DNA from: Clostridia bacterium
GTDB lineage: Bacteria > Bacillota > Clostridia > Christensenellales > CAG-138
DNA length: 64,000 nt
Direction of reading: 5' to 3'
Assembly (NCBI GenBank): GCA_035561095.1
Contig: DATMYE010000054.1
Span: 35,202-99,201, forward strand
Below, piece after piece: positions 17,137 to 19,494 of the stretch; the first letter of the stretch is position 1; the number at the start of each line of letters is the position of its first letter. The notes below the pieces were generated by a model, which saw nothing but the letters and a program-made list of their open reading frames with translations, did not search any database and had not been told where the DNA came from. Both the position numbers and the translations under genes were made by a program.

Positions 17137-18930
17137 TTATGCCTGACAGGTCAGGTGATAGTTTTCGATGCTGGAGCGCATCTCGGCGATCAGTTCATCC
17201 GTGAGGTCTCCGGTCTCCTCGATCATATCGAGCATGGTGCCGTAGTTACGGCGCACATACTGCAAAAGCCCCTTCTGGAAGGCGCGTGCGTGCGGCGCGG
17301 GCACCTCCTTGAGGAAGCCGTTCATGACGGCGTAAAGGAGCAGCACCTGCTCGCTCATCTGTAACGGCTCGTGCTGGTTTTGCTTGAGCGTTTCGCTCAG
17401 GCGGTCTCCGTTGTCGAGAATGCCCTTGGTGACGCTGTCGATATCGGAGCCGAACTGCGCGAAGATCTGCAGTTCGCGGTATTGCGCGAGCGTGAGTCGC
17501 AGGGTCTTGACAACCTTTCGCATGGCCTTCTTCTGCGCGGCGCTGCCGACGCGGGAGACAGACAGGCCGACGTTGACGGCAGGGCGTACGCCCGCGTGGA
17601 ACAGTTCCGGCTCGAGATAGATCTGGCCGTCCGTGATCGAGATCACGTTGGTGGGAATATAGGCGGAGATATCGCTTGCCATGGTCTCGATGATGGGCAG
17701 CGCTGTGAGCGATCCGCCGCCGCGCTCCTCGGAAAGATGGCCTGCGCGCTCGAGCAGCCTCGAATGCAGATAGAACACGTCTCCGGGATATGCTTCGCGT
17801 CCCGGCGGACGGTGCAGCAGCAGCGACATGGCACGGTAGGCCACGGCGTGCTTACTCAAATCGTCGTAGATGACAAGTGCGTCCTTGCCGTCATACATGA
17901 ACTGTTCGGCAATGGCGCAGCCCGCGTAGGGCGCGAGATATTGCATCGCAGCGCAGTCGCTGGCGCTTGCCACGACGATGACGGTATAGTCCATCGCGCC
18001 GGCTTTCTGGAGCGTATCGTAGATCTGCGCGATGGTGGAGAGCTTTTGACCGATGGCGACATAGACGCAGTTGACGTGCTTGCCGCGCTGGTTGATGATC
18101 GTATCTACTGCGATGGTGGTCTTGCCCGTCTGCCGGTCGCCGATGATCAGCTCGCGCTGGCCGCGGCCGATCGGGATAATGCTGTCCACCGCGAGAAGAC
18201 CAGTCATCAGCGGTTCGTTGACCGCCTGACGGTCGATGATCCGCGGCGCCGGGGATTCCACCGGACGGTAACGCGAGGCGTTGAGCGGTTTTTCGTCGAT
18301 CGGCATACCGATGGGGTTGATGACGCGGCCCAGCAGCTCGTCGCCTACGGGCACCTCGACCACGCGGCCTGTGCCGTAGACGCGCTCGCCGACGTGGACC
18401 TCGTCCTGACCGTTGAGCAGCACGGCGCCGACGCCGTCTAGCTCAAGGTCCATGGTCATGCCGAACACGTCGTTGTCAAACGCGATCTGCTCGCCGTAGC
18501 GGGTATGCGAAAGACCTTCAATGCGCACCACACCGTCGCCCACGCTGGTGACCACGCCGTATTCATAGACGGCGGATTTGCTCTCCAGAGATCGGAGCTG
18601 CTTTCTCAGCGTCAGTCCGATATCGTGCGCCGTGGTGCTGAAAAGACGGGGTGAAACGTCGGCTTGCTTGAGGTTGCTTGCCGTGATCTCCGCGCCGCCG
18701 GACGTATCGTTTGAGACCAGAAACTTCTGCGCCTCTTTGATGCGGTAGGAAACGCTCGCGTCGTAGATCTTCCCGTTGATGATGGCTAAGAAGCCACCGA
18801 TCAGCGCGTCATTGTGCTTGATATCGAAGACGACATCCTGACCAAGCAGCGTTTTAAAATGCTGCTTGACGGATTCGATCTGATCTTCACCGAAGGAATC
18901 GGTGATGTATAGTTCGCCTTTCAGAGCCAT
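17137..18930 (-). CDS. atpA: ATP synthase F1 alpha subunit with an N-terminal delta (C-terminal domain)-like fusion
   Basis: Alpha motifs SVGDGV, GDRQTGKT, RPPGREAYPGDVFY, SRVG; about 100 extra N-terminal residues containing LIGG..INGKIYDASV. Start ATG 18930 after AGGAAAG. Confidence 0.93.
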   Translation of the reverse strand: MALKGELYITDSFGEDQIESVKQHFKTLLGQDVVFDIKHNDALIGGFLAIINGKIYDASVSYRIKEAQKFLVSNDTSGGAEITASNLKQADVSPRLFSTTAHDIGLTLRKQLRSLESKSAVYEYGVVTSVGDGVVRIEGLSHTRYGEQIAFDNDVFGMTMDLELDGVGAVLLNGQDEVHVGERVYGTGRVVEVPVGDELLGRVINPIGMPIDEKPLNASRYRPVESPAPRIIDRQAVNEPLMTGLLAVDSIIPIGRGQRELIIGDRQTGKTTIAVDTIINQRGKHVNCVYVAIGQKLSTIAQIYDTLQKAGAMDYTVIVVASASDCAAMQYLAPYAGCAIAEQFMYDGKDALVIYDDLSKHAVAYRAMSLLLHRPPGREAYPGDVFYLHSRLLERAGHLSEERGGGSLTALPIIETMASDISAYIPTNVISITDGQIYLEPELFHAGVRPAVNVGLSVSRVGSAAQKKAMRKVVKTLRLTLAQYRELQIFAQFGSDIDSVTKGILDNGDRLSETLKQNQHEPLQMSEQVLLLYAVMNGFLKEVPAPHARAFQKGLLQYVRRNYGTMLDMIEETGDLTDELIAEMRSSIENYHLTCQA

Positions 18931-19017
18931 GCTGAGCTCACTTTCCTGAAGTCTAACTCTGTAAAATGCCGATTGCGGCACGAAACAAGCGCGGATAAGG
19001 AGCGCGCTTGACCGATC

Positions 19018-19494
19018 TTAACCGATCTTATCGAAGAAGCTGTCGATGATGCGCTGATGATCCACCCGGGTAACCTCGCGCTCGAGAATTTTTCCCGCAA
19101 TGCTCAGCGCGAGCTCGGCGGTTTGCTCCTTCATCTCGCTGAGCATTCCTTCGCGCTCCGCGGTCGCCTGATTCATCGCATCCGTGAGGATATTCTGCGC
19201 ATCCTGTCTGGCTTTTTTGCGGAGTTCTTCCGCCTCGCGCTCCGCGGAGAGGCGGCGCTCCTCGGCGATATGCTCTGCGTCGAGACGCGCGTTTTTCATC
19301 GCGGTATCATACTGCGCCTTCAGGATGTTTGCCTCGTTGCGAATCTCGTCGATCTGCTGACGCTCGTTTTCAAACGCGGTCTCGCGTTCCTTCATGTACT
19401 TGCGCACCGGCTTATACAGGAAGTAACGCAGCACGAGAAACAGAACGAGTATGTTGAGCAAATGCTCTATGAAATCGATCAGTTGAAAATCCAT
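19018..19494 (-). CDS. atpF: ATP synthase F0 b subunit
   Basis: N-terminal TM with LYKPV..YM.ER, then a long charged coiled coil. Confidence 0.92.
   Translation of the reverse strand: MDFQLIDFIEHLLNILVLFLVLRYFLYKPVRKYMKERETAFENERQQIDEIRNEANILKAQYDTAMKNARLDAEHIAEERRLSAEREAEELRKKARQDAQNILTDAMNQATAEREGMLSEMKEQTAELALSIAGKILEREVTRVDHQRIIDSFFDKIG

Follow-up and report, generated by a model that had tools for sequence, protein, structure and literature searches.

A delta C-terminal domain fused to subunit alpha in a Christensenellales F-type ATP synthase, and its possible bearing on stator stalk number

The locus described here raises the question of how an F-type ATP synthase attaches its stator to the catalytic head when the gene for a separate delta subunit is missing from the operon. 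The operon lies within a 64,000-nucleotide stretch of contig DATMYE010000054.1 (hereafter the window) from a Clostridia bacterium of the order Christensenellales. All of its genes are on the minus strand, in the order ORF (atpI position)-atpB-atpE-atpF-[deltaC-alpha]-atpG-atpD-atpC. The original prediction had given the same order, which stands, but had also named the first ORF atpI; that label is by position only, as this membrane ORF (20780-21091, 103 amino acids from a TTG start) matches no Pfam or NCBIfam family.

The remaining genes were assigned by family matches, and include atpB (19863-20780), atpE (19552-19782, subunit c, 76 amino acids), atpF (19018-19494, subunit b, 158 amino acids, of the usual length and without a delta domain), atpG (16141-17094, gamma), atpD (14729-16144, beta, with Walker A, GERSREG and DELSDDD motifs) and atpC (14273-14692, epsilon). 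TIGR00962, TIGR01039, TIGR01146, TIGR01216, TIGR01144 and TIGR01260 all score above the NCBIfam cut-off in the operon. Subunit a, with 305 amino acids and Arg240 in the conserved helix, passes the Pfam cut-off and falls under those of NCBIfam; it begins with a hydrophobic extension of about 95 amino acids containing two hydrophobic segments (20490-20780), for which no family match above cut-off was obtained. Subunit a frames of 300-306 amino acids are also present in the relatives L012, L014 and L022, and two extra transmembrane segments were counted in 25 of 136 loci, a crude count that relies on uncurated start positions. A sigma-70-like promoter consensus upstream of the operon (21199-21227, minus strand) and an intrinsic-terminator-like hairpin after atpC (14231-14254, minus strand) are pattern matches only. 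The operon is thus a canonical bacterial F-type set (a, b, c, alpha, beta, gamma and epsilon, in the order B-E-F-(H)-A-G-D-C) in which the separate two-domain delta (atpH) is absent.

The place where atpH would be expected is occupied by an 87-nt spacer (18931-19017) with a purine-rich, ribosome-binding-like stretch, which leaves no room for the gene and agrees with the predicted distance of under 90 nt between atpF and atpA. This spacer is variable in length in the fused genus (70-128 nt) and measures only 1-3 nt in six relatives with a free delta C-terminal domain (deltaC); translation of deltaC-alpha may have been uncoupled from atpF by the fusion. No conserved element that would raise atpB or atpF output was found among the operon patterns or in the spacer of six genus members. 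A spacer hairpin was considered as an attenuator of the F1 genes in favor of a and b supply and rejected: it folds, but gives no terminator call, and the spacer is not conserved across the six genus members.

The fusion itself is a 597-amino-acid AtpA (18930-17137, minus strand) that starts with an ATG at 18930, atpF ending at 19018. Residues 10-69 align with positions 110-170 of the 172-position Pfam OSCP profile (E 2.2e-6, with a score over the curated threshold), and the alignment to the atpA model TIGR00962 begins only at residue 101. A profile of 72 fused N-termini aligns exclusively to columns 116-189 of a full-length delta profile built from 16 sequences (HHalign 99.3%, E 7e-21). By these profile matches, the N-terminal segment is the delta/OSCP C-terminal domain, followed by a linker of about 26 amino acids and then a normal alpha, as had been proposed from a resemblance to delta and a linker of roughly 30 residues. 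The domain spans residues 1-73 (18712-18930), the linker residues 74-99 (18634-18711), and F1 alpha the remainder, from its N-terminal helix (residues ~101-113) to the stop codon (17137-18633). The linker has pLDDT values below 50, is likely flexible and is absent from the free-deltaC sisters.

A structural model of residues 1-190, calculated from a 72-row alignment (mean pLDDT 72, pTM only 0.46), contains a four-stranded sheet and two helices at residues 3-73; after the linker (74-99) come the alpha N-terminal helix (101-113) and the barrel. Its three best Foldseek matches are the three chains of PDB entry 9jc1, aligned over 186-187 columns (TM 0.64-0.69, rmsd 3.7-3.9 A), whereas ordinary alpha subunits align over about 90 columns only. 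Because a single superposition covers both domains, the modelled arrangement appears to fit that of 9jc1, which is an engineered enzyme. The same entry ranked first in a profile search (E 6e-45), and was on top in Foldseek for a poor full-length AlphaFold model from a shallow alignment (pLDDT 48.6). A single-sequence PDB search with residues 1-130 returned chance annexin matches, and 9jc1 at an E value of only 1.2.

It is very improbable that the fusion is a misassembly, or a decaying domain in front of an alpha that is translated from an internal start or clipped from the longer chain. Four sequencing runs were used to check the junction, two of them (X6 and X12) from other studies. A DNA contig of run X6 crosses the junction without a gap (18410-19062), as does a contig of RNA run X12 (18458-18978, with 36 differing letters), which is no measure of expression. 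No listed contig covers the whole 2.7-kb stretch, which leaves some room for an assembly error, and no indel is listed across it in any of the four runs. A search with residues 1-120 yielded 78 proteins (the query and 77 relatives) from 200 candidates, all with OSCP and alpha domains and most of them 593-612 amino acids long, so that the suggested survey of related genomes recovers the same design many times. Codons 2-125 of the fusion contain no in-frame ATG, GTG or TTG, and none of the 78 homologs has a methionine in the linker, which together rule out an internal alpha start. In residues 1-70, dN is 0.12 and dS 0.83 (dN/dS about 0.15; 15 pairs from six genus members), and by this measure the deltaC domain of the fusion is under purifying selection. 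The predicted disorder of the linker, which could be cleaved, is the other point in favor of a vestigial domain.

The absence of the other half of delta extends beyond the operon. The fusion is the sole OSCP match in the genome, and the window holds the sole F-type operon found there. A delta N-domain profile built from 29 full-length deltas, which recovers 3 of 3 held-out full deltas at E <=7e-13, has no match at E <=1 in 41,195 six-frame segments of the 93.6% complete assembly. The predicted absence of atpH is therefore upheld at the level of the genome, although at that completeness the absence of the gene or of the N-domain is not absolute.

The deltaC-alpha fusion is not a new rearrangement, and natural ones are already in print. 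Ueno et al. (2025; PMC12229609) removed the N-domain from the delta of the Bacillus PS3 enzyme and fused the remainder to alpha, giving the structure deposited as 9jc1, and named a natural fusion of this kind in Acidaminococcus fermentans (D2RLW6; also G4Q3K6 and A0A1I2C5T3). As in the engineered enzyme, the window's protein has deltaC in frame at the alpha N-terminus, a retained alpha N-terminal helix, no delta N-domain and no free delta, and the two align in sequence and model over the whole N-terminal region. The window's version is natural, with a linker of about 26 residues where the engineered one is short and synthetic, and is accompanied by a full epsilon and an N-terminally extended subunit a. 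The Acidaminococcus fermentans fusion shares the domain design and the operon logic but belongs to a different lineage, whereas the window's is nested among Christensenellales with free deltaC. A 2026 preprint (10.64898/2026.10.01.756066) describes fusions of delta to alpha and to b, together with short deltas, in several phyla, Bacillota among them, and puts forward the idea of extra stalks. A text search of the accessible part of PMC4154653 found no relevant mention of a delta-alpha fusion.

Other known systems are more distant. Like the window's enzyme, the F1Fo of Chloroflexus aurantiacus (Zhang et al. 2025; PMC12002316) is a natural F-type enzyme with a reduced delta N-domain, in that case shortened, with two stalks and more than one subunit a; it keeps a free delta whose short N-domains dimerise to give two stalks, whereas in the window's enzyme, as read from its genes, the N-domain is gone and three sites would be available. 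The mycobacterial fusion likewise joins delta to an operon neighbor, but places it on b and is longer than normal (10.64898/2026.10.01.756066). The chain has 445 amino acids. N-ATPases (Dibrova 2010, as cited in PMC11738941 and 10.64898/2026.10.01.756066) also lack a separate delta and keep a deltaC-like segment. Theirs, however, is on b, in an accessory enzyme with another gene order, and the window's enzyme has none of these features.

The distribution of delta forms was surveyed through OSCP matches, which 56 of the family's 121 genomes and 170 of the order's 301 contain. Classification covered all 58 family matches and 146 of 190 order matches (201 loci in 190 genomes, with G000 counted from the window). 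These loci comprise 83 free deltaCs (including two tandem-deltaC genes and one broken fusion), 72 deltaC-alpha fusions, 31 full deltas, 14 b-deltaC-alpha fusions and a single b-deltaC fusion. In the order sample, a short delta lacking the N-domain is present in 121 of 137 classified genomes, with only the full form in 16 and both in 8; the short forms are free, or fused to alpha, to b or to both. Fused forms are found in 17 families of the order, and from one fused lineage to another the distance separating deltaC from the alpha barrel ranges between 8 and 78 residues. Full delta dominates elsewhere in the class (about 63 of 81 matching genomes, from a reading of the match list) and in the phylum (94 of 102 matching genomes), and deltaC-alpha fusions are scattered outside the order as well. 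The fused protein at L194 is identical to KXK65158.1, named as AtpA of Christensenella minuta; this identity assigns the order to Christensenellales and shows the design in a cultured species.

About 80 loci of the order hold the free form, a mini-delta gene of ~70-90 amino acids that contains the C-domain only and lies between atpF and atpA (for example L022:1747-1974, L076, L078, L080 and L083). The one mini-delta scored fell below the cut-offs of all seven NCBIfam delta models matched, and genes of about 75 codons can escape gene callers as well as HMM cut-offs. The b-deltaC-alpha triple fusions (about 730-760 amino acids; L017:1006-3225, L011, L015, L018, L023-L029, L064, L071, L161 and L223) lie downstream of a separate b' gene, go with a c subunit of a distinct kind, and form one clade (support 100) within the family and beyond; by their domain composition, every alpha of such an enzyme would be membrane-anchored. 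A representative search with the b-deltaC part gave 396 matches, 12 of them at E <=1e-30. The b-deltaC fusion of about 220 amino acids (L010:1039-1731, G039) belongs to an operon that is canonical in other respects, and is nested among relatives whose mini-delta is free. Tandem deltaC-like domains were also seen: a free delta reads as two C-domains in L111:2495-3046 and partly in L057:1330-1737, and an alpha at L210:260-2392 has two deltaC matches at its N-terminus. Outside the order, G448:C165, G510:C10, G455:C6 and G423:C9, from other orders of the class, have a near full-length delta in frames of 668-679 amino acids, and these four are probable whole delta-alpha fusions judging from frame length and match. 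Elsewhere in the phylum, G573, G655 and G617 show several short OSCP C-domain matches in frames of 120-170 amino acids beside a full delta. An unrelated full-length delta was met on an Erysipelotrichaceae contig during the locus search in named genomes.

The closest relatives of the window's genus provide a view of how the fusion may have arisen. In genus g1, that of the window, 6 of 6 genomes are fused, and in its sister genus g4 deltaC is free in 4 of 4, as a mini-delta of ~76 amino acids in frame with atpA across a TAA and 3 nt; at the position of that stop, the linker of the window's protein adds about 25 residues. Alpha-core trees (FastTree with 201 rows, L084 left out and the outsider L032 included; IQ-TREE with 40 chosen rows) place g1 as one fused clade, sister to g4 and nested among further free-deltaC genera. 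IQ-TREE support is 95/92 for g1 with g4 and 100/100 for a 14-row group of 10 free and 4 fused sequences, and g1 falls in the same place in a beta tree of 132 rows. The starred branches force at least 9 (alpha) or at least 13 (beta) changes of fused state, and for the fusions of g1 and g38/g44/g83 an AU test rejects a single clade (p 2e-7), with groups (g1 and three other fused rows) that were picked after the first tree.

Since the nearest relatives are already without the N-domain and rely on a free mini-delta, the fusion looks secondary, and the part of the original prediction in which covalent fusion replaces the delta N-domain is not supported. Probably the N-domain was lost first and fusion followed, repeatedly: the lineage would have used a free mini-delta, and in g1 the single in-frame stop between mini-delta and atpA would have been lost and a linker added. 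The direction depends on parsimony and on an outgroup from other families of the order, because the trees alone cannot tell gain from loss. The counts of state changes give no direction and leave room for a different history, in which a full-length delta-alpha fusion was later trimmed, or in which fusion is the ancestral state of the order and the free mini-deltas arose by repeated fission. The four long delta-alpha frames elsewhere in the class and the spread of fused forms over 17 families would suit it. However, the 201 loci classified in the order include no full delta-alpha fusion, g1 is nested in several successive free-deltaC lineages, and the variable deltaC-barrel span fits separate origins, which makes this history unlikely. 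The choice between the two touches history and not mechanism.

Given alpha3 stoichiometry, each F1 is predicted to display three b-docking deltaC domains, as originally proposed. In the engineered enzyme, removal of the N-domain frees the three-fold axis, and each alpha N-terminus together with deltaC binds a b2 dimer (PMC12229609). Subunits a and b are about two-fold increased, H+/ATP is 5.8 rather than 3.0, and cryo-EM finds 0, 1, 2 and 3 stalks in 15, 51, 26 and 8% of particles, although stalks appeared to dissociate (PMC12229609). The earlier inference of more than one stalk is thus backed by direct experiment on the same design in Bacillus PS3 (PMC12229609). By analogy, the native fusion would leave the three-fold axis free for up to three b2 dimers, and probably enables the enzyme to carry two or three stator stalks and to translocate more protons for each ATP. 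If it behaves as the engineered one does, a lower proton-motive force could suffice for ATP synthesis, or more protons could be pumped per ATP, in what would be a fermentative anaerobe with an additional V/A-ATPase of the Na+ type. A multi-stalk native enzyme is the best reading of the analogy, and we consider it reasonably probable. No measurement of stalk number for any natural deltaC-alpha enzyme, no report of a purified one and no publication on a Christensenellales ATP synthase were found in the (mostly open-access) literature.

Several observations weigh on the side of a single stalk, with the fusion merely tethering deltaC for reliable docking and two of the three deltaC domains left empty through limited a and b2 supply or crowding. 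The engineered enzyme averages only 1.26 stalks by cryo-EM, with one stalk on half of its particles and a lower pumping activity (PMC12229609). One standard copy each of atpB and atpF would have to meet a demand for a and b that is up to three times the normal one, and the bulky hydrophobic N-terminus of subunit a could crowd the ring. The low pTM of the 1-190 model also tempers the comparison with 9jc1, and the frequent alternation of fused and free states on the tree is what a near-neutral tether would be expected to give. Against this, the three sites are equivalent and unblocked in 9jc1, bulk stoichiometry and H+/ATP were doubled in the engineered enzyme (PMC12229609), and the persistent order-wide loss of the N-domain is more readily understood if additional stalks provide mechanical compensation. 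A single-stalk native enzyme is therefore considered rather unlikely, and the multi-stalk interpretation is retained.

The ion specificity of the enzyme was assessed from subunit c, which has ESTAIY in helix 2 and a methionine at the helix-1 Gln/Glu Na+ ligand position. A Na+-type c is expected to have the helix-1 Gln/Glu together with E[STQ][STQ]xxY (10.64898/2026.10.01.756066); the window's c does not have this combination, and the methionine leads to a prediction of an H+-type ring. Na+-type c subunits occur in 28 of 30 full-delta operons versus 1 of 164 short-delta operons, numbers that come largely from a few lineages and are no independent correlation. Ten of the 190 genomes have both full-delta and short-delta operons (G110, G202, G207, G244, G314, G343, G345, G352, G373 and G059), and nearly all full-delta operons have a Na+-type c. 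The window's genome further encodes a V/A-type ATPase with a Na+-site-like motif in its K subunit, similar to that of Enterococcus hirae NtpK, as well as an RnfD-family gene, a decarboxylase beta subunit, a membrane pyrophosphatase and three NuoL/M/N-like genes; cytochrome bd was not found in the 93.6% complete assembly. Close relatives of the window DNA come from sediment, groundwater and digester metagenomes. This gene content fits a proton synthase working at low pmf, or a high-yield proton pump, beside a Na+ circuit.

The enzyme is highly improbable as an accessory Na+ pump of the N-ATPase kind, even though N-ATPases also have no separate delta and keep only its C-terminal part. The window has the canonical F-type gene order, with deltaC on alpha and not on b, and the arrangement beta-epsilon-X-X-a-c-(b-delta)-alpha-gamma with an extended b is not found. 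Five alternate F1F0 models (alpha, beta, gamma, b and c) score under cut-off where the canonical models pass; in addition, the operon is the only F-type one found in the genome, and its c lacks the helix-1 Na+ ligand. The mycobacterial b-delta enzyme, for its part, is a single-stalk enzyme.

A wider and more tentative possibility is that most Christensenellales with an F-ATPase, the cultured gut species C. minuta included, run a multi-stator, proton-type enzyme as their resident F-ATPase, about half of them by means of a free, untethered mini-delta of ~75 residues. If so, with three untethered adaptors on each head, the number of stalks, and with it the H+/ATP gear ratio, could be tuned through the levels of a, b2 and mini-delta, and recurrent fusion to alpha, to b or, as in b-deltaC-alpha, to both would fix this gear stepwise.

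The rule of one stalk and one subunit a was broken only in 2025, by one engineered (PMC12229609) and one natural enzyme (PMC12002316). What is new here is that the delta N-domain has been lost across the order, that a free mini-delta is the likely precursor, that fusions across a single stop codon probably recurred, and that a cultured species has the design. The family offers natural near-pairs of free and fused mini-delta, one stop codon and a linker apart, which together with the cultured species should make stalk number and H+/ATP measurable in vivo. The system would bear on ATP synthesis by energy-limited anaerobes at low membrane potential, and its evolved linkers are available for the engineered enzyme.

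The surroundings of the operon were also annotated. The 64-kb window contains no tRNA or tmRNA. A sensor-kinase-like gene and a response regulator lie beyond the atp terminator (11841-14217, minus strand), and class I ribonucleotide reductase alpha and beta genes are found at 23039-26646 (minus strand), the host being a probable anaerobe. Directed divergently, upstream of the atp operon, is a gene for a group B monomeric [FeFe]-hydrogenase (21615-22976, plus strand; TIGR04105 above cut-off).
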